From positions 23,268 to 87,267 of IMG/VR virus record IMGVR_UViG_3300028048_001915: a DNA stretch of 64,000 bases; one strand, given 5' to 3'. The notes beneath the pieces were generated by a model. That model saw only the letters and a program-made list of their open reading frames with translations. It did not search any database and was not told the DNA's origin. The translations under genes and the position numbers were made by a program. The DNA is from a virus. Its lineage: Duplodnaviria > Caudoviricetes. Below, in pieces: positions 21,851 to 64,000 of this stretch (the first letter of the stretch is position 1; each line of letters starts with the position of its first letter).

Positions 21851-21883
21851 AATAGTAAAGTATAAAAAAGTAACTTTTCATTA
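21851..21883 (+). promoter_or_regulatory. 33-bp motif (copy 1; 31/33 identical to 62960-62992) containing TATAAAAAAGTAAC and the palindrome AAAAG-TAA-CTTTT
   Basis: AATAGTAAAGTATAAAAAAGTAACTTTTCATTA. Confidence 0.7.
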
Positions 21884-39953: not shown

Positions 39954-41093
39954 TTAATCAGTATCTTTTAACTCAATATGATTTTTAATAATATTCAAAA
40001 TCCTTTTTTTATAAGAATAAATATCTGAAACATTCTTAATATCTATTTTATCACCTATTTTCATTCCATTATGTCCTACTTCAACATTGTCAAATAGTTC
40101 TATTTTTAAATTATCCTGGTTATTGAAATGGAATCTGACAATTGTATAAAATTGATGATCATCTAATAACACATTACAGTAACTTTTACGGTCACGAATT
40201 GTTATTCTTTCACTGTCTGTTACTTCTGCAGCTATTGATTTAATGATATAATATCCCTCTAATTCTTCAGGTGTTGTGACTATATCATCGGTTACTGGTG
40301 CTTCTTTTTCAGTTTCTTGAACTTCTTCTTTTTCTTCAGATACATCTGTTCTTGCTACTGCATCAGCTAATCTTTTTTCTACTTTTTCATTGATAATTTC
40401 AGTAGATACACTTGTAAGTATTAATCCAAATCTTTCTTTAATTGATTGGGTTAACACTCCATCATATACTTGTTTTCCTATTGTTTTAATGAATTCTTCT
40501 GATGGGTCTTCTAATTCATTTATTAATGTTTTTTTGATTAAGTTACGATATTTTAAGTCATCTGCTCTTGTGACTATTTCATCAATATCGAAGTTGTTTT
40601 TAACGAATTTTTCTAATTCTTTTATATCATTTTTTGTAAGGTTTAATAAGTTAATGTCCAGGAATGGTTTTTCAGCCATTCTGTTATTATCATCACCTGT
40701 GGTGAAGAATTTATATTCAACACCATTAGTTAGGATTCCTATTTGGATGTCTGTGATGCTGAAGTATCTGTATAATTGTGAGATGTGATCACTTGTTAGT
40801 GGGTTGTTTACTTGTTTGCATTCGATGAATATTATTGGTTCATCATTTTCTAATATTGCTAAGTCGACTTTTTCTCCTTGTTTTGTTCCTACGTCTGCAG
40901 TGTATTCTGCTCTTACTTCTGCAGGGTTGGTGGTGTCATATCCTAGTATTCTTAGGAATGGCATTATTAATGCTATTTTTGTTGTTTCTTCGCTGTCGAT
41001 GTGCTCGAGTTTTGTTTTTATGTCTTTACAAAATTCTTTCACTTCATTTTCAAATGACATTTTTATTCGCACCTTCCTTTTTTTGGTCTTCAT
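39954..41093 (-). CDS. Type I restriction HsdR N-terminal-like PD-(D/E)xK nuclease domain protein
   Basis: EETTKIALIMPFL..LGY...KVDLAI...IECK...QLYRYF...ILTNG. Confidence 0.8.
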   Translation of the reverse strand: MKTKKRKVRIKMSFENEVKEFCKDIKTKLEHIDSEETTKIALIMPFLRILGYDTTNPAEVRAEYTADVGTKQGEKVDLAILENDEPIIFIECKQVNNPLTSDHISQLYRYFSITDIQIGILTNGVEYKFFTTGDDNNRMAEKPFLDINLLNLTKNDIKELEKFVKNNFDIDEIVTRADDLKYRNLIKKTLINELEDPSEEFIKTIGKQVYDGVLTQSIKERFGLILTSVSTEIINEKVEKRLADAVARTDVSEEKEEVQETEKEAPVTDDIVTTPEELEGYYIIKSIAAEVTDSERITIRDRKSYCNVLLDDHQFYTIVRFHFNNQDNLKIELFDNVEVGHNGMKIGDKIDIKNVSDIYSYKKRILNIIKNHIELKDTD

Positions 41094-42182: not shown

Positions 42183-42242
42183 CTCACTATATTATATTTT
42201 TGTGTATATTAGGTTAATATATTTTTATTTTTAATCGAAAGT

Positions 42243-42276
42243 TTTAAAAAAGTAACATATTATTAAATACACACAA
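42243..42276 (+). promoter_or_regulatory. TWTAAAAAAGYAAC promoter-like motif upstream of csf1
   Basis: TTTAAAAAAGTAAC at 42243-42256 followed by ATACACACAA, which is also present at 48885-48894. Confidence 0.6.
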
Positions 42277-42315
42277 TCAAATCCAAAGGAGGAATTAAAT
42301 ATACTATTTAGTGAA

Positions 42316-42936
42316 ATGTTATGTAACACATTAAACATAACTCCAGAAACTGGTGAAATATCTGGAGAATGTTGTATATGTAAAAAACATACTGAAACTG
42401 GTTTTAAAAAAAAATTCAGTGGAAATTTCACATGTGCTGATTATATTAGTACTGGTGAAGTAATATGTCCAGAATGCCAATATTTAGTTAAAAATAGTAA
42501 TGAATATCGAAGAACGATGTTTCTTTTAACAGAAGATGAATTAATTAAATTCAAGAAGAAAGAAGCTAAAGATATAGTATTTAATTTACCTGATAAACCA
42601 TTTTATATTTATTTAACTAAAACTTGGCAGAAAATAGGGTGGATACGGATGAATGAAGTATATAATCCAAGTAAAGATGGAATAATTAATTTTTTAGTTG
42701 ATTATGATATTATTCATACGAATATGGATAACTTAAAAAAACATTATGATAATATCCACATCCTAAGAGAATTGAAAATACCTAAAACAGTATTAGAAAC
42801 TGGAAAATTAGAAATGCATCATTTTAACAAAATAAAAGATGAATACGATATCAAAACTGCTAGAAAATATAGTAAATATCTTAATTCTATGTCTAATAAT
42901 CCAGTTTATGATTTAGCATTATATTTGGAGGATTAA
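42316..42936 (+). CDS. csf1: Type IV CRISPR large subunit Csf1 (Cas8-like)
   Basis: N-terminal CCIC...CPEC zinc finger and PDKPFYIYLTKTWQKIGW motif; first gene of the csf operon. Confidence 0.75.
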   Translation: MLCNTLNITPETGEISGECCICKKHTETGFKKKFSGNFTCADYISTGEVICPECQYLVKNSNEYRRTMFLLTEDELIKFKKKEAKDIVFNLPDKPFYIYLTKTWQKIGWIRMNEVYNPSKDGIINFLVDYDIIHTNMDNLKKHYDNIHILRELKIPKTVLETGKLEMHHFNKIKDEYDIKTARKYSKYLNSMSNNPVYDLALYLED

Positions 42937-42940
42937 TATA

Positions 42941-43324
42941 ATGGAAGATGATTATAAAACTCAAGAAGAATTAGAAATGACAATTGAAAAAGATTTAGCT
43001 TACTGCTTGGCAAATGTATATCGAAAGATTCCTTGGAGGAAAATAGGTGTTAAATCTGCACATAAGTTTTTTGTAGATCGTATACGTGCAAGTAGTAATA
43101 GTCGAAATTTTAAGGAATTTTTAGATGTGTTCACACGAAAATGTAATGTAGAATTTGTTAGATTAGATACTGAAATTATTGATTTTTTAGAAGCACATAT
43201 TAATATTACTATGATGTTACTTCGTAAAGAATCAACTTTTATAGCTAATTTAGCATTGGAAAAAGTAGATGAGTTAAAGAAAGCTGAAAAATTGGCTAAA
43301 ACTGGTCAAAAAACATTAATATAA
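42941..43324 (+). CDS. cas11: Type IV-B small subunit (Cas11-like)
   Basis: 127 aa all-helical protein between csf1 and csf2. Confidence 0.6.
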   Translation: MEDDYKTQEELEMTIEKDLAYCLANVYRKIPWRKIGVKSAHKFFVDRIRASSNSRNFKEFLDVFTRKCNVEFVRLDTEIIDFLEAHINITMMLLRKESTFIANLALEKVDELKKAEKLAKTGQKTLI

Positions 43325-43344
43325 AAAAAGGAGTTTGAGTATTT

Positions 43345-44193
43345 ATGGAAACTTTAAAAATAAAGGGAAATTGGACTGCATTATCTCCAATCCATCATGG
43401 TGGTTCTGAGGATTATGGTACTACTAAATTAATTTTAACATTACCTACAGTAGTTATTAATCCATTAACAGGTGAAGAAGAAATTGATAATATTCCTGCA
43501 ATTCATGGGAATGCTGTTAGAGGATATTTAAGACGTTTGATAATGGATGATTTTTTAACATTATTAGATTATGAATTAGATTCCAAAAAAGTTTATCATT
43601 TCTTATTTACTGGTGGAATACTTGAAGCATTAGATAGTAAAGATAAAGGAGCGATTAATTTAACTTTAAAAAAACAGATTCGTGAGTTAATTCCACCAAT
43701 AAGTTTGATTGGTTCTGCTTTAGGAAATCAGATGATTCAAGGAAAGTTAAAAGTAGGAATGGGTGATATTGTTTGTAGTGAAACTAAACATTATATTGAA
43801 GATTATAGTGATTATGATTTCAGTGCATATAATCTTAAAGGATCTGATTTTGGTACGAGATTGGATGATTTGAAAGAGGGTAAAACAGATGATGATGAGC
43901 AAGCTCATCAGATGAAATATGAATTTGAAACTTTAATTAGAGGTACTAAATTTACTCATGAATTTATTTTAGAAGACTGTAATAGTATAGAAAAGGCTTG
44001 TTTCCATAGGATGATTAAATTATGGGAAGAAAGACCTTATCTTGGAGGTAAATCTGGTACTGGTTATGGTAAAATTCGTTTGGATTATCCTAGTTTAAAT
44101 GATTTGGATGATTTGGATTATCTTAATTATATTGAAGATAATAAAGATGAAATTACTAATTTGTTAAATGAGTTAGTGAAAATATGGAAATAA
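43345..44193 (+). CDS. csf2: Type IV CRISPR backbone Csf2 (Cas7 RAMP)
   Basis: ALSPIHHG, PAIHGNAVRGYLRR, FLFTGG, PPISLIG, QMKYEFE and G-rich loop LGGKSGTGYG. Confidence 0.92.
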   Translation: METLKIKGNWTALSPIHHGGSEDYGTTKLILTLPTVVINPLTGEEEIDNIPAIHGNAVRGYLRRLIMDDFLTLLDYELDSKKVYHFLFTGGILEALDSKDKGAINLTLKKQIRELIPPISLIGSALGNQMIQGKLKVGMGDIVCSETKHYIEDYSDYDFSAYNLKGSDFGTRLDDLKEGKTDDDEQAHQMKYEFETLIRGTKFTHEFILEDCNSIEKACFHRMIKLWEERPYLGGKSGTGYGKIRLDYPSLNDLDDLDYLNYIEDNKDEITNLLNELVKIWK

Positions 44194-44909
44194 AAAAAGA
44201 AATCATGCAAAGAATACTTGATTATAGTAGTGGATGTAACTATTCTCCATTAGAAATAGTGATGGATGTTACTCCACCTATTTATATTACAAGTCCATGG
44301 TTGCATCTTGATAGTATTTTAACATATTTATGTCTTCGTGATGCATTAGGTGATTTATTTTATATTATGCCTTCAAATGAAAAAATTGATGTTAGTTTAT
44401 TAGATGTTCCATTAATGAAAACAAGTGATGTGTATCATAGCAGTGTTGGAATATATTATAAACCAAGATTATATCGTGACACTATATATAAAAGATTCAC
44501 TGATAAAGAAACCCATAAATTAACTCGTAAACAACAAAAAGGCAGAATCAAAACTAATCAAGGCCATTTTAAAGATTTTATGATAAATCTCCCAATATTA
44601 ATCACAGATAAAATAACATTTTACTGTAATGGAGATAAAGAAGAAATAACTCGATTATTATCCTATTTAACTAATATTGGGAAAAAAACAAGTATTGGTA
44701 GCGGGAAAATAAGAAAAATAACTGTTAACTCCATTAATGAAGATTATAGTTTCTTTAAAAATGAAAAAATTATGAGGCCAATACCTGCAACTTTAGATGT
44801 GCCTGTTGTTCCAGGCATGGTATTTGAACAACAACCATACAAACCACCCTACTGGGATAAAAATAATGTTTGTATGTGTATTGTTCCCGAGAATCAATTG
44901 CAAATGTGA
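44184..44909 (+). CDS. csf3: Type IV CRISPR Csf3 (Cas5 RAMP)
   Basis: HLDSIL, GHFK, IGKKTSIGSG, RPIP and YKPPYW motifs. Confidence 0.9.
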   Translation: MEIKKEIMQRILDYSSGCNYSPLEIVMDVTPPIYITSPWLHLDSILTYLCLRDALGDLFYIMPSNEKIDVSLLDVPLMKTSDVYHSSVGIYYKPRLYRDTIYKRFTDKETHKLTRKQQKGRIKTNQGHFKDFMINLPILITDKITFYCNGDKEEITRLLSYLTNIGKKTSIGSGKIRKITVNSINEDYSFFKNEKIMRPIPATLDVPVVPGMVFEQQPYKPPYWDKNNVCMCIVPENQLQM

Positions 44910-44915
44910 TTTACT

Positions 44916-45614
44916 ATGAGATTACTATTAAAATTTAACTCATCAGAGAAAATAAATCCTTATCAAATTTCTAAATTTGAAATACAGGGATTTATTTATT
45001 CTTTATTAAAAGGAACACGATATAATTATCTTCATGATAGAAAGGGGTTTAAATTTTTTTGTTTTAGTAATATTTTCATAATTAAACAGAAATATCATTT
45101 AATTATTAGTTCACCTGATCCAAAGATGATAAAAACATTATATTATAAATTAAAAACAATGGATACATTAAGATTAGGAGAAAAAATATATTCTATAAAT
45201 GAATTAATTTTAATAAATCTTCCTAGAAAATTTAATTATTTCAAAACAAGTACACCAATAATTTTATTCCATAATCAAACAAGAAGTAACCATTGCTACA
45301 GTTTTAAAAAAGATGATATTAATTATGCATGGTTTTTTGAACGTTTAAAAGATAATGCTTTGAAAAAATATAATGCATTTTATAATGATGAGTATTCTTT
45401 TGAAGGTCCTTTATTTTCATCATTTAGTTTTAAAAGAGAAGTTGCTATGGACTTTAAAAGGAAAAACCATAAATTTGTTTTAATTGGTTCTTTGTGGGAT
45501 AAATTAGATTATGATTATACTAAAGATAATATCAAATTCTATAAATTTATTTATGAAAATGGTCTTGGGGAAAAGAACGGATTAGGTTATGGAATGTTAA
45601 ACAATGTTAAATAA
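44916..45614 (+). CDS. cas6: CRISPR RNA-processing endoribonuclease Cas6
   Basis: KGFKFFCFSNIF, IISSPD, TSTPI and C-terminal GLGEKNGLGYGML G-loop. Confidence 0.92.
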   Translation: MRLLLKFNSSEKINPYQISKFEIQGFIYSLLKGTRYNYLHDRKGFKFFCFSNIFIIKQKYHLIISSPDPKMIKTLYYKLKTMDTLRLGEKIYSINELILINLPRKFNYFKTSTPIILFHNQTRSNHCYSFKKDDINYAWFFERLKDNALKKYNAFYNDEYSFEGPLFSSFSFKREVAMDFKRKNHKFVLIGSLWDKLDYDYTKDNIKFYKFIYENGLGEKNGLGYGMLNNVK

Positions 45615-45626
45615 AAGTGATTTAAA

Positions 45627-46412
45627 ATGCACCCTGATAATAATATGCCAAGAAGAACACGATTAAGCTATGAGATGCACAGTAAACATAAATCATATCA
45701 AGATAATATTAAATTAGCTGAAGAGAATATTTCAGAAATTTTAAATTCAAAATACAAACCAGTGATTGAATATTCTGGTGGGAAAGACAGTCTTGTATTG
45801 TTACATATGGTTATGCAGCAGGACAATACTGTGCCCATTTTCAATTATCATCCTGGTTATGGGAAATATGCTAAGCAGATTTATCGTACACAGAAAACAC
45901 ATAATGAGTTAATGCGTAGTGCAGAGATTGCAGGAGCTATGGATTTGACCGTAGTCAACACCCCTTTTTGGAACGGAGAAAAATACTTAATTGGAGATTA
46001 CTTCCCAATGTTATTTAATTTCATGAAAAAAAGGAATTGTGATTTAGAGTTATTAGGTATTCGTGGCGGTGAATCTGTTACACGTAAACATCGTGTTAAA
46101 GGGCCATTAATTCGTATGGAGGGTCAAAGAAGAGTATCTTTCCCTATCCGACATTTAACTGTTGATGATATATGGACATATATTATTACAAATGATTTGT
46201 ATTATATATCTCATTACGACAAATATGCCCAAGTATATGGTTATGAAAATGCAAGATTTACTAGTTTATTTAATGAAAACAATTTAGATGTTGGAGGGTC
46301 ATTTTTCTTTGATAAGATTATATTATCTGAAGAATCTAATCAACAAGCAGAATTACATGAAAAATGGTGGACTAGAATAAATAAATTAGATGGAGGTGAT
46401 AATTATGGATAG
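45627..46412 (+). CDS. cysH: PAPS/APS-reductase-family (CysH-like) adenine nucleotide alpha-hydrolase, the type IV-B accessory protein
   Basis: PP-loop SGGKDS, LGIRGGES..R, PIRHLTVDDIWTYI. Confidence 0.85.
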   Translation: MHPDNNMPRRTRLSYEMHSKHKSYQDNIKLAEENISEILNSKYKPVIEYSGGKDSLVLLHMVMQQDNTVPIFNYHPGYGKYAKQIYRTQKTHNELMRSAEIAGAMDLTVVNTPFWNGEKYLIGDYFPMLFNFMKKRNCDLELLGIRGGESVTRKHRVKGPLIRMEGQRRVSFPIRHLTVDDIWTYIITNDLYYISHYDKYAQVYGYENARFTSLFNENNLDVGGSFFFDKIILSEESNQQAELHEKWWTRINKLDGGDNYG

Positions 46413-46424
46413 TAAAGGTAAAGA

Positions 46425-47219
46425 TTAAGGGGATTTATTCCTCTTAATTTTTTTTAAAGAAGTAACCACATCTAATGCATCAAAAATAGTATCATATAAA
46501 TCTGTATCGTAAGTTTTACCATCAATACTTATTGTTCCACGCCATTTTCCTAAATGAGGGATATAATAAACATTATTCCAATAAGATAACTCAGTATATG
46601 TTAAATCAAACTGTTTTAAATACTGATAAATAAACTCGCGAGTGATACCATTATCAATATCTTCAACAACATCATATATACTCATACCTTGCATTTTGCA
46701 GGATAATAAGTAAGGTACTCCTCCTTTTTCTTCAATAAGACTATACATTTTCATTGTTTTTTTAGGAGTGCGTTTAACATAACCTAATTCTTTTTTGGTA
46801 ATGTTCTCTTTTTTTAGTATTTCTGTGATTGCATGGTCTAATGTACCTTGCTTAACATTTAGCTCATCTGCAAGTGTGGTTATATTATGTCCTTCTTTGA
46901 ATTTCCGCTTTAAATAGTTTATTCCACCAATTTCATTAAGTTTATCTTCTAAACTTTGAGTATAATTGATATTAAAATCATCCCAATTATAACAACTAAT
47001 TTCAATCCATTTGTTTAACGTGATTGGGGATATATTTAACTCTTCAGCGATTTCTCCACGATGTTTGAATTCTTTATTTATAATTTCACTTAATAAATAG
47101 TTTATTTCAGTAACAGATTTTTTAGTTCCCATACGAATCCCCATGAAAAAAAGTAAACTTAATAATGAGTTGACCAAACATTTTTGATCAACCCATAAAA
47201 TGATTCGAGTACAACACAT
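46425..47219 (-). CDS. Multi-HTH protein with a C-terminal AP2-like domain (start probably at MGTKKS, 47131)
   Basis: IAEELNISPITLNKW and LADELNVKQGTL HTH motifs; KWRGTISIDGKTY. Confidence 0.55.
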   Translation of the reverse strand: MCCTRIILWVDQKCLVNSLLSLLFFMGIRMGTKKSVTEINYLLSEIINKEFKHRGEIAEELNISPITLNKWIEISCYNWDDFNINYTQSLEDKLNEIGGINYLKRKFKEGHNITTLADELNVKQGTLDHAITEILKKENITKKELGYVKRTPKKTMKMYSLIEEKGGVPYLLSCKMQGMSIYDVVEDIDNGITREFIYQYLKQFDLTYTELSYWNNVYYIPHLGKWRGTISIDGKTYDTDLYDTIFDALDVVTSLKKIKRNKSP

Positions 47220-47233
47220 GTGTGCTGCACTTA

Positions 47234-47734
47234 TTATATATTTTCAAGTAACTTCTTAAATTTTTCTTTATTATTTTTTCCAGGAATTGATTGGAATTTC
47301 TTCATTTGTGATGGGGTTAATTTGAAACTCACTCTCTCTGTTGCATATTCATAATCTGAGATATTAGTTGAATATATGTTAAAAATAGTATTGAACATAT
47401 TTTTAACTTGTTCTTCTTCAGAAACATTAGTTGATTTGATTTCATTGAGTTTATCTATTAAATCATACTCTAATGTTGCTTCTTTGATATACATCTCTGT
47501 ACTGGCTGAGATGCCCATCCCAGTCATAAACAAGCTCACCATATAACTGAATGATGTAGCATGAACTACATCAAATCCATGATGGCGTGCATAATATCGA
47601 GCAAATGCACACCATCTCGTTGAATTATCTACGATGGATAATGTGATTCCATGTTCTTTGAGGAATTCTTTTAGAACTTCATCAGTCATATCTGCATCAA
47701 TTATCGTATAGTCATATTCATTTTCCCAAAACAT
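47234..47734 (-). CDS. Hypothetical protein
   Basis: ORF in tandem with neighbours and preceded by a GGTGA SD. Confidence 0.45.
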   Translation of the reverse strand: MFWENEYDYTIIDADMTDEVLKEFLKEHGITLSIVDNSTRWCAFARYYARHHGFDVVHATSFSYMVSLFMTGMGISASTEMYIKEATLEYDLIDKLNEIKSTNVSEEEQVKNMFNTIFNIYSTNISDYEYATERVSFKLTPSQMKKFQSIPGKNNKEKFKKLLENI

Positions 47735-47761
47735 TTTAGATCACCATTTTAAAAAATAAAA

Positions 47762-48781
47762 TTAGGGATTGTTAATAATCCCATTTGTTATGAGGTACTG
47801 ATAAAGAGTTTCATCATCAGTAATAAGTGCGATTTCTTCTATGTCTCCTTCTTCGAATAATTGCTCTGCATTTTCACCATATTTTGCATATATCAACAAT
47901 TCTCTTGAAATTGATTGAGCATATGCCTTTTTAAAAGATTCAGTATAATATGAAATGATTTCATCTTTATAATCACAATCATCTTCCCAAAAACTTTTTG
48001 GGATTTCTACAACATACCCATTATCATAAACGATATCACTAACTTTTGTTTCATCATATGTGTATGGGTCTTCATAGTATACATCTTCATGTAGGATAAT
48101 TGTATTTCCATTAAATTTAGGGATAAATCTCATGTAATACTGACAGTCCCAATCAGAGTCATAGTCTTCATATTCTATTTCGAATTTTGCCCCTTCATTG
48201 ATGATTAATATGAGGTTTTCCCTCACATAAGTACGGTTTTCAGTATCGTCTGATTGTAAGATGGCATCATCAATCCAAAGTCCATCATCAGCCAAATCAG
48301 ATTCAAATTGAGCAAGTTCATTTTCTTGCTCAATAGTTGATCCTTTGATAGAAATTCCATCATGGAAGAGGAATCTCCTTGATTGGTATCCTGTACCATT
48401 CCAGAAATACCAGTCAATATCTTCAGCTTCAGAATCATTGATTGTAACGTATCCTTCAACATATACTTCTTCATTTCTGTTTGAAACAATTTTAAATGAT
48501 ACATCAAAAGATTCAAAGTAGTTTATTTCTTCTTTGATTTCTTCTGAAATTTCTCCACCATTGTCGATGAATTCTACAAGTTCTTCTTTGATTTCAGTTA
48601 ATAATTCTTCAGATTCTTTGATGTCTTCTTTTGCTCTTTTGATGACTCTTTCACGTGCTTCTAATTGTTCTTGAGTCATGTTTTCGATATCTAATTCTTC
48701 CATTTTAGCAAGTTTTTCTCTTGCGTTTTCAAGCAATTGTTTTTCAGTGTAATATTCGTTTTCTAAACTCATTTTTTTCAA
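47762..48781 (-). CDS. Highly acidic hypothetical protein
   Basis: 339 aa, Asp/Glu-rich, N-terminal coiled coil. Confidence 0.5.
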   Translation of the reverse strand: MKKMSLENEYYTEKQLLENAREKLAKMEELDIENMTQEQLEARERVIKRAKEDIKESEELLTEIKEELVEFIDNGGEISEEIKEEINYFESFDVSFKIVSNRNEEVYVEGYVTINDSEAEDIDWYFWNGTGYQSRRFLFHDGISIKGSTIEQENELAQFESDLADDGLWIDDAILQSDDTENRTYVRENLILIINEGAKFEIEYEDYDSDWDCQYYMRFIPKFNGNTIILHEDVYYEDPYTYDETKVSDIVYDNGYVVEIPKSFWEDDCDYKDEIISYYTESFKKAYAQSISRELLIYAKYGENAEQLFEEGDIEEIALITDDETLYQYLITNGIINNP

Positions 48782-48867
48782 CTCGAATCATTTTTTTGAG
48801 AAGTTCACTTCTCGTTATACTTATGTTGGTCTTACTAGTATATATACTTTTCTATAAAATAACAAAC

Positions 48868-63421: not shown

Positions 63422-64000
63422 TTATCGATATTTATCTAATATATCATCATCACTTTTATTCTCTAAAGCAGCTATTCTTTCCATTATTTGAGATTGTTGT
63501 TTAGTCAAAGTATTTTGCAGTTCTTCGTTTTTATTTTCTAATTCGTTAATTTTTTCTTCCATTTCCCGCCTTACATCTGAAGTGTATACCTTTGTTTCAG
63601 TATTTTCAAGACTTAAATCAGGTATTGCTGCCATGTATGCTTCATACACATCATTATCATCAATTTTAATATAACTAGGGTCTGTTTTCATAGGACTTAC
63701 ATGCCCTTCAATCAAAGAACATATTCTTAAATCACCACAGTTTCGACTTATCATAGTTTCAAAGTATTTCCTGCAAGCATGCGCATGAAATTTAGGGATT
63801 TTCTCTATTGCTTTTTGTTTATCTTCTTTAGATATTTCCCCATTTTTTATTTTTTCATCAATTATTTTAATGTGATGTTCTCTTAATTTTTTATTTTTTT
63901 CAGTAAATGCTTCCGATACAGATATTTGTTGTAATTGACCTTTAAAAAACTTTTTTTTACTTGAAAATAATGAATCTTCTTTTGTTAATTCTAAATTCAT
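63422..64000 (-). CDS. Tyrosine recombinase/integrase, C-terminal part (runs off the window)
   Basis: FHAHACRKYF (HxxR), IEGH and downstream Y; C-terminal coiled coil. Confidence 0.8.
   Translation of the reverse strand: MNLELTKEDSLFSSKKKFFKGQLQQISVSEAFTEKNKKLREHHIKIIDEKIKNGEISKEDKQKAIEKIPKFHAHACRKYFETMISRNCGDLRICSLIEGHVSPMKTDPSYIKIDDNDVYEAYMAAIPDLSLENTETKVYTSDVRREMEEKINELENKNEELQNTLTKQQSQIMERIAALENKSDDDILDKYR

Follow-up and report, generated by a model that had tools for sequence, protein, structure and literature searches.

A type IV-B CRISPR effector operon with a host-type Cas6 and no detected array in a tailed virus attributed to methanogenic archaea

We analysed a 64,000-nucleotide stretch of viral DNA (hereafter the window), which is the last 64 kb of the 87,267-bp IMG/VR virus record IMGVR_UViG_3300028048_001915, and we focus on an operon within it that encodes a type IV CRISPR effector together with a Cas6 endoribonuclease. 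Six open reading frames (ORFs) on the + strand fill positions 42316-46412 of the window: csf1 (42316-42936; 206 aa), cas11 (42941-43324; 127 aa), csf2 (43345-44193; 282 aa), csf3 (44184-44909; 241 aa), cas6 (44916-45614; 232 aa) and a cysH-like gene (45627-46412; 261 aa). The ORFs are spaced by 4-20 nt, and csf2 and csf3 overlap by 10 nt. These six co-oriented, tightly packed genes had been proposed in a preliminary description of this DNA; each now has exact ORF positions and a profile or structure match.

The fifth gene is recognized as Cas6 by TIGR01877 (4e-29), scoring 102.5 bits against the curated NCBIfam cut-off of 58.65. In alignment with the Pyrococcus furiosus Cas6 (3pkm), Tyr28, His40 and Lys46 of the viral protein fall on the catalytic residues Tyr31, His46 and Lys52, and the C-terminal glycine-rich loop is kept. 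Among 23 viral Cas6 sequences the Tyr and His are invariant, while the Lys is present in 20 and replaced by Arg in three, and the catalytic residues are kept across a viral Cas6 clade of 58-92% identity. On this alignment the viral Cas6 is predicted to be catalytically intact. Its nearest relatives in a large protein database form a clade of metagenomic proteins with 52-92% identity, beyond which, past a clear identity step, lie the Cas6 proteins of Methanosphaera, Methanobrevibacter, Methanobacterium and Methanothermobacter at 44-49% identity. We inspected four of these cellular genes (L004, L025, L026 and L027): each stands first in a type I-B cas6-cas8b-cas7-cas5 locus, three (all except L026) go on with cas3-cas4-cas1-cas2, and three of the four lie beside arrays, with repeats such as GTTTAAAATAGACAGTATTGTATAGAAAT. 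The host I-B repeat type reads GTTTAAAATAGAC...GAAAT. A FastTree phylogeny, of modest support overall, groups 26 virus-type sequences into a single clade (support 89) that branches among the cellular Methanobacteriales Cas6. Identities and tree both point to a host-type origin of the viral Cas6, from the type I-B Cas6 of Methanobacteriales.

The effector subunits were assigned gene by gene. Csf1 gave a weak match to TIGR03114 (E=1e-3), but the cysteines of its CxxC...CxxC zinc finger (C19, C22, C51 and C54) are invariant in 10 homologues, and the top PDB matches of its profile are three solved type IV-A Csf1 chains (8rc3_G at 5e-4, 9n3y_A and 7xfz_A); the homologue in the related locus L005 carries a weak precomputed match to PF27781:Csf1. 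The first gene is predicted to encode a small zinc-finger Csf1 large subunit, not a Cas10-like one, without an HD domain. No sequence-family match was found for the 127-aa product of the second gene. Its AlphaFold model (predicted local distance difference test score 91.5) is an all-helical bundle whose best structural match is the type IV-B Cas11 subunit 7jhy_g (Z=9.5, root-mean-square deviation 3.9 Å over 110 of 127 residues; VIA re-alignment), followed at Z ~4-5 by Cas11 or Cse2 from type I complexes. Foldseek alone returned no significant Cas11 match for this model, and a weak profile match was recorded to Cas11c (11fs_N, E=0.048). On the modelled fold, we assign gene 2 as the Cas11 small subunit.

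Csf2, the Cas7 backbone subunit, matches TIGR03115 at 1.7e-8, which is under the equivalog cut-off yet the best family, and PF03787 (RAMPs) at 2.8e-5; its top PDB matches are the type IV-C Cas7c 11fs_C (7e-14) and the IV-B Csf2 7jhy_e (5e-8). Csf3, the Cas5 subunit, matches TIGR03116 across its full length (7.5e-23), and PF27782:Csf3 is recorded on its homologues. The two TIGR family matches agree with the earlier assignment of the operon as type IV-B-like with Csf2 and Csf3 of type IV. A homology search with Csf2 returned 954 representative relatives, including many proteins of 400-480 aa (P0309, P0320, P0325 and others) that align just through their C-terminal ~230 residues and are possibly fusions, that is, Cas7 with an N-terminal extension of ~180 aa.

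The last gene encodes a PP-loop enzyme matching PF01507 (1.4e-10), with an invariant SGGKDS motif. Its fold matches include the 3'-phosphoadenosine 5'-phosphosulfate (PAPS) reductase 6vpu (7e-9) as well as TtuA and FAD synthase, and no conserved C-terminal catalytic Cys is found among its homologues. A PP-loop without the catalytic cysteine is the signature of CasCysH (PMC8175902), which this protein shares.

This gene content establishes the cassette as subtype IV-B (Csf1, Cas11, Csf2, Csf3 and a cysH-like gene), since the csf1-cas11-csf2-csf3-cysH core is common to archaeal and bacterial relatives, including Ignavibacteria loci with a Csf2 40% identical to that of the window; the assignment is drawn from gene architecture and PDB matches. 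No helicase (DinG/RecD), effector nuclease or adaptation gene is found among the six genes. Subtype IV-C is ruled out by the 206-aa Csf1 and by the lack of any large ORF (Cas10-like, HD) in the cassette, and subtype IV-A by the lack of a cassette helicase, the lack of an array and a Cas6 of the TIGR01877, type I-B kind. Because of the intact Cas6, the cassette is a variant of IV-B and not a typical member.

Compared with a relative of 72-86% identity, all six genes show ratios of nonsynonymous to synonymous substitution rates (dN/dS) of 0.08-0.24, with 0.19 for cas6. Purifying selection acts on all six genes. The operon is preceded by an upstream region (42230-42315, + strand) containing a promoter-like box, TAAAAAAGTAAC at 42245-42256 with CGAAAG before it, and a GGAGG ribosome-binding site. 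The window has five copies of the 12-nt box TAAAAAAGYAAC, all on the + strand (at 21863, 42245, 48870, 56570 and 62972), against 0.12 expected, and they are embedded in longer similar stretches of 33-47 nt upstream of gene blocks. The box is likely a virus-specific promoter element, one copy of which would drive the IV-B operon. The csf1 frame is open 5' of the ATG at 42316 and there encodes ILFSEM, to be compared with the N-terminus MIFSEM of the L020 homologue; in this region (42289-42318) GGAGG lies 7 nt 5' of an ATA at 42301, and the true csf1 start may be a non-ATG codon.

Related cassettes vary in the presence, family and position of Cas6. The order csf3-cas6-cysH is common to the window and loci L002, L005 and L007, while in L044 a Cas6 of the window clade (61% identity) appears in the order csf3-cysH-cas6. 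Two further cassettes, L003 from a rumen virus (Csf3 51% identical) and L019 on a contig of a Methanobacterium metagenome-assembled genome (MAG), carry another Cas6 family, placed after cysH. These proteins are 24-27% identical to the window Cas6 and 35-43% identical to L043, a Methanobacterium type I Cas6, and it is from such pairwise identities that we infer their cellular source; a homology search with the L003-type Cas6 found 9 relatives. Given this second family, its position after cysH and its proximity to another Methanobacteriales type I Cas6, we conclude from the sequences that cassettes of this group acquired Cas6 on two or more occasions and from different families of cellular type I Cas6. 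Cas6 is also absent from some cassettes: L006 has a Csf3 identical to that of L005 and L007 but a clean deletion of the cas6 ORF, and L017, L018 and L020-L024 are without Cas6. Comparison of these loci indicates that Cas6 stays linked to the cassette through rearrangements, yet is losable.

Several other features were observed in related loci. Two small Methanobacterium MAG contigs carry type IV-like cassettes without cysH (L039:248-5399 and L040:1128-6287), ordered csf2-csf3-DUF6610-cas6-QueF-like, with a Cas6 of the second family (46% identical to L043), two unannotated genes (~230 and ~140 aa) before csf2 and a TRM-like methyltransferase after the QueF-like gene. They hint at type IV effectors linked to enzymes of 7-deazaguanine or nucleic-acid modification. 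In other relatives DNA-modification genes occupy the interval between csf3 and cysH: PAPS-reductase+DUF3440, GNAT and ParB_N genes in L020 (11582-13927), and N6/N4 DNA methylases in L019 (6347-7677) and L018 (7174-7872). A copy integrated in a Methanobacteriales genome (L041, 8522-12070, on the 191-kb contig G280:C31) has a tyrosine integrase directly after csf1-cas11-csf2-csf3, with neither a cysH-like gene nor cas6. Tandem repeats of ~30-80 nt with TTTTAAGT.TGGTAGATAG-type units, iteron-like in appearance, occupy positions 1-430 of L006, at the end of the contig with the cas6-deleted cassette.

The pattern of gain and loss bears on two alternative views of what Cas6 does here. The enzyme could be a lone anti-CRISPR decoy that competes for the host precursor of CRISPR RNA (pre-crRNA) or holds its products, thereby starving the host Cascade, with its place in the operon reflecting co-expression only. 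A predicted intact, host-type enzyme would suit such a role, as would the L006 deletion, which removes cas6 without disturbing the rest of the operon. The decoy view fits poorly with the recruitment of at least two Cas6 families specifically into IV-B cassettes and with a linkage kept in both gene orders (csf3-cas6-cysH and csf3-cysH-cas6), and in none of the loci examined did a viral Cas6 stand alone. Repeated recruitment and kept linkage argue for a functional coupling of Cas6 with the cassette, and we consider the decoy rather unlikely. Alternatively, the complex could act in a canonical IV-B manner on RNA other than crRNA, whether heterogeneous or cellular, driven by the CysH-like enzyme, with Cas6 as an accessory or a decaying passenger. 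The IV-B complex of Mycobacterium sp. JS623 did bind heterogeneous RNA (PMC8175902), and most relatives (L006, L017, L018 and L020-L024) are without Cas6, one of them by a natural deletion. A decaying passenger is difficult to reconcile with a cas6 dN/dS of 0.19, with catalytic residues kept over a clade of 58-92% identity and with more than one acquisition of the gene; this explanation, too, seems unlikely to us.

The carrier encodes a terminase, portal, head protease and tail proteins within the window. Its large terminase subunit TerL shares 67% identity with the TerL of 'Caudoviricetes sp. vir080', a virus with Methanobacteriales as its stated host, and close relatives of the cassette sit on contigs assigned to MAGs of Methanobrevibacter and Methanobacterium, bin labels that are possibly unreliable. 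A Methanobrevibacter type I-B array contains a spacer that agrees with the sequence of the related virus L005 in 31 of 34 positions. Of 328 Methanobacteriales species genomes just 5 carry the cassette, a distribution of the kind that a mobile element would show. Together these observations support a carrier that is a tailed virus of archaea of the Methanobacteriales group, with gut methanogens as hosts; the preliminary description had likewise named an archaeal tailed virus, which the TerL identity and the spacer match to L005 now back. CheckV estimates the 87,267-bp record to be 100% complete. Save for its first few bases, the start of the record (~130 nt) recurs at its end (~126 nt), giving a terminal direct repeat of ~125 nt with one copy at 63875-64000 of the window and the other outside it. 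Because the ends share this repeat, the virus genome is most likely complete, despite its IMG/VR topology label of 'linear'.

We found no CRISPR array in the whole record by a tandem-repeat finder, a direct-repeat finder and a scan for spaced repeats (9-12-nt seeds, spacing 40-120), nor any in the full contigs G001 and G002 of two related viruses (82 and 77 kb). The spaced-repeat scan was also negative in 11 other related loci, a set that excludes L039-L044. Repeat searches of the virus and its relatives returned just coding repeats, tRNA arms and low-complexity matches. The virus genome as a whole encodes no Cas1, Cas2 or Cas4. The earlier statements that the window holds no array and the cassette no cas1, cas2 or nuclease therefore extend, respectively, to the complete record with two related genomes, and, for the adaptation genes Cas1, Cas2 and Cas4, to the genome as a whole, the operon itself consisting of just the six genes. 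A conventional CRISPR-Cas system whose array was missed through an incomplete record could be imagined from the 'linear' label; set against the completeness estimate, the terminal repeat, the equally array-less 82- and 77-kb genomes and the lack of adaptation genes, it appears extremely improbable.

The guide might instead be a non-canonical RNA encoded by the virus, such as a solitary repeat unit or a structured or tRNA-like element, processed by Cas6. Fuxiviridae IV-B loci have a two-repeat mini-array (PMC10541130), and the window virus has several non-coding gaps of ~8 kb in total. Against a viral guide, no spaced repeat of at least 18 nt was found in the three full genomes, and no site with fewer than 8 mismatches to two 29-nt Methanobrevibacter I-B repeats was found in any viral locus. 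A permissive Rfam scan gave no CRISPR-DR match and a tRNA-Leu as its sole match. Except for the promoter region, the operon has no non-coding space within it or directly beside it, and the sole conserved non-coding block near the cassette in relatives, considered as a guide locus and rejected, is no more than the TATA-box promoter and leader of a neighbouring gene. We regard a viral guide as improbable, and the preliminary suggestion that orphan non-coding loci supply the guides found no support. In L005 an 18-nt pair 88 nt apart occurs among small ORFs and is not present in the window.

The reading we tentatively favour, with rather less than firm confidence, is that the viral cassette captures host CRISPR RNA (crRNA) by means of Cas6. 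An intact and selected host-type Cas6, its independent recruitments, the lack of a viral array or repeat and the full retention of the target-binding subunits Csf1 and Cas11 and of the CysH-like enzyme are together hard to account for unless Cas6 acts on transcripts of CRISPR repeats that the host supplies. During infection or lysogeny of Methanobrevibacter-like hosts, the viral Cas6 would bind host pre-crRNA and cut it at the host repeat; the host-derived crRNAs would then be loaded into the viral Csf complex, which would bind complementary nucleic acid and have its effector in the CysH-like ATP-pyrophosphatase-type enzyme. As a net effect, host guides would be diverted from the host Cascade, host spacer memory would be turned on rival mobile elements, or both. 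The conservation of Csf1, Cas11 and CysH favours such an active RNA-guided function over a passive sponge. An experimental precedent exists in type IV-C complexes, which lack an array and take up crRNAs from systems present alongside them; Cas6 is encoded at some IV-C loci, and in Thermococcus onnurineus the Cas6 encoded at the IV-C locus is not a stable subunit of the complex (PMC13676074). The idea of a processed RNA pirated from the host had been raised in the preliminary description, and it is strengthened by the host I-B type of Cas6, the intact triad and the repeated recruitment, while still being an inference.

Four points weigh against host crRNA capture. The sole purified IV-B complex, that of Mycobacterium sp. 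JS623, bound a heterogeneous set of RNAs rather than the I-E crRNAs expressed along with it (reviewed in PMC8175902). The repeat specificity of the viral Cas6 may have drifted, given its 44-49% identity to host Cas6. Judging from the related loci, cas6 is not essential to the cassette, because L006, a near-identical virus, has a precise cas6 deletion and many relatives lack the gene. Finally, hosts already produce mature crRNAs, so it is not obvious why the virus would need a Cas6 of its own.

A bolder version of crRNA capture would make IV-B cassettes of archaeal viruses guide-RNA pirates in general: they would repeatedly capture a Cas6 matching the resident type I system, turn host memory into guides for the viral complex, and use the CysH-like enzyme to modify or mark the bound target. 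We consider this general scheme possible but doubtful. If it were true, subtype IV-B would gain its first function and an RNA cargo that is defined for the first time. Host-guide capture as such, if true, would represent a novel form of interaction between viruses and the methanogens of gut and rumen, and would tie IV-B mechanistically to the recently shown crRNA borrowing of type IV-C. For subtype IV-B, the locus offers host type I-B crRNA as a concrete candidate RNA and the viral Cas6 as a concrete enzyme, and its relatives supply natural controls: operons with and without cas6, two independently recruited Cas6 families and differing gene orders.

The surroundings of the operon show some further features. 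In L002, L005 and L020, homologues of the genes at 47234-47734 and 47762-48781 come after cysH and share its strand; relative to these three loci, the block 46425-48850 (- strand) is inverted in the window virus, and it has a conserved 70-nt TATA-box promoter and leader at 48782-48850. A gene at 39954-41093 (- strand), some 1.2 kb upstream of the cassette, encodes a 379-aa protein with an HSDR_N / PD-(D/E)XK nuclease domain, no homologue of which adjoins the cassette in relatives. Two replication-type helicases lie 6-10 kb from the cassette on the opposite strand.

The cassette is not categorically new, as both IV-B in archaeal viruses and IV-B with Cas6 have been recorded before. The view that IV-B typically lacks array and Cas6 holds as a description of the typical case, but the novelty attached to a Cas6-bearing version was overstated: a survey by Pinilla-Redondo et al. 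counted 12 IV-B loci with Cas6, treated as a rare exception and not analysed (PMC7038947). Published IV-B loci of archaeal viruses include those of Fuxiviridae of Bathyarchaeia (PMC10541130) and of a Methanoperedens virus (10.1101/2023.08.02.551345), and a viral contig with csf2-csf4 is matched by a Methanobrevibacter olleyae spacer (PMC9723712).

Compared with subtype IV-B as known from Mycobacterium sp. JS623 (PDB 7JHY; PMC8175902, PMC7038947), the window operon has the same csf1-cas11-csf2-csf3 core and an SGGxDS PP-loop cysH-like gene without the catalytic Cys, is likewise borne on a mobile element without helicase, nuclease, adaptation genes or array, and encodes a Cas11 whose modelled fold matches that of 7jhy (Z 9.5). 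It differs in encoding an intact Cas6, and by sequence its Csf2 is nearer to the archaeal IV-C Cas7c (7e-14) than to the JS623 Csf2 (5e-8). With the IV-B cassettes of other archaeal viruses it shares an effector module and a cysH-like gene without an adaptation module, for which a role in counter-defence or inter-element conflict has been proposed. Unlike the Fuxiviridae loci, which have a two-repeat mini-array and no reported Cas6, the window virus is array-less with a host-type Cas6; no Cas6 is reported in the Methanoperedens virus either. Compared with the Methanobacteriales I-B Cas6 (L004, L025, L026 and L027), the viral enzyme has equal length, 44-49% identity, the Tyr/His/Lys residues and the G-rich loop, while the viral copies form their own clade within a type IV operon that is without cas8b, cas3, cas1, cas2 and an array. 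The Thermococcales IV-C1 systems (PMC13676074; PDB 11fs) are also archaeal type IV effectors, usually without an array of their own, that recruit crRNAs of co-occurring systems; at some of their loci there is a Cas6, which is not stably part of the complex, and their Cas7 is the closest solved Cas7 to the window Csf2. They are chromosomal and have a Cas10-like HD-nuclease large subunit, whereas the window cassette is viral and combines a small zinc-finger Csf1 with a CysH-like accessory enzyme.

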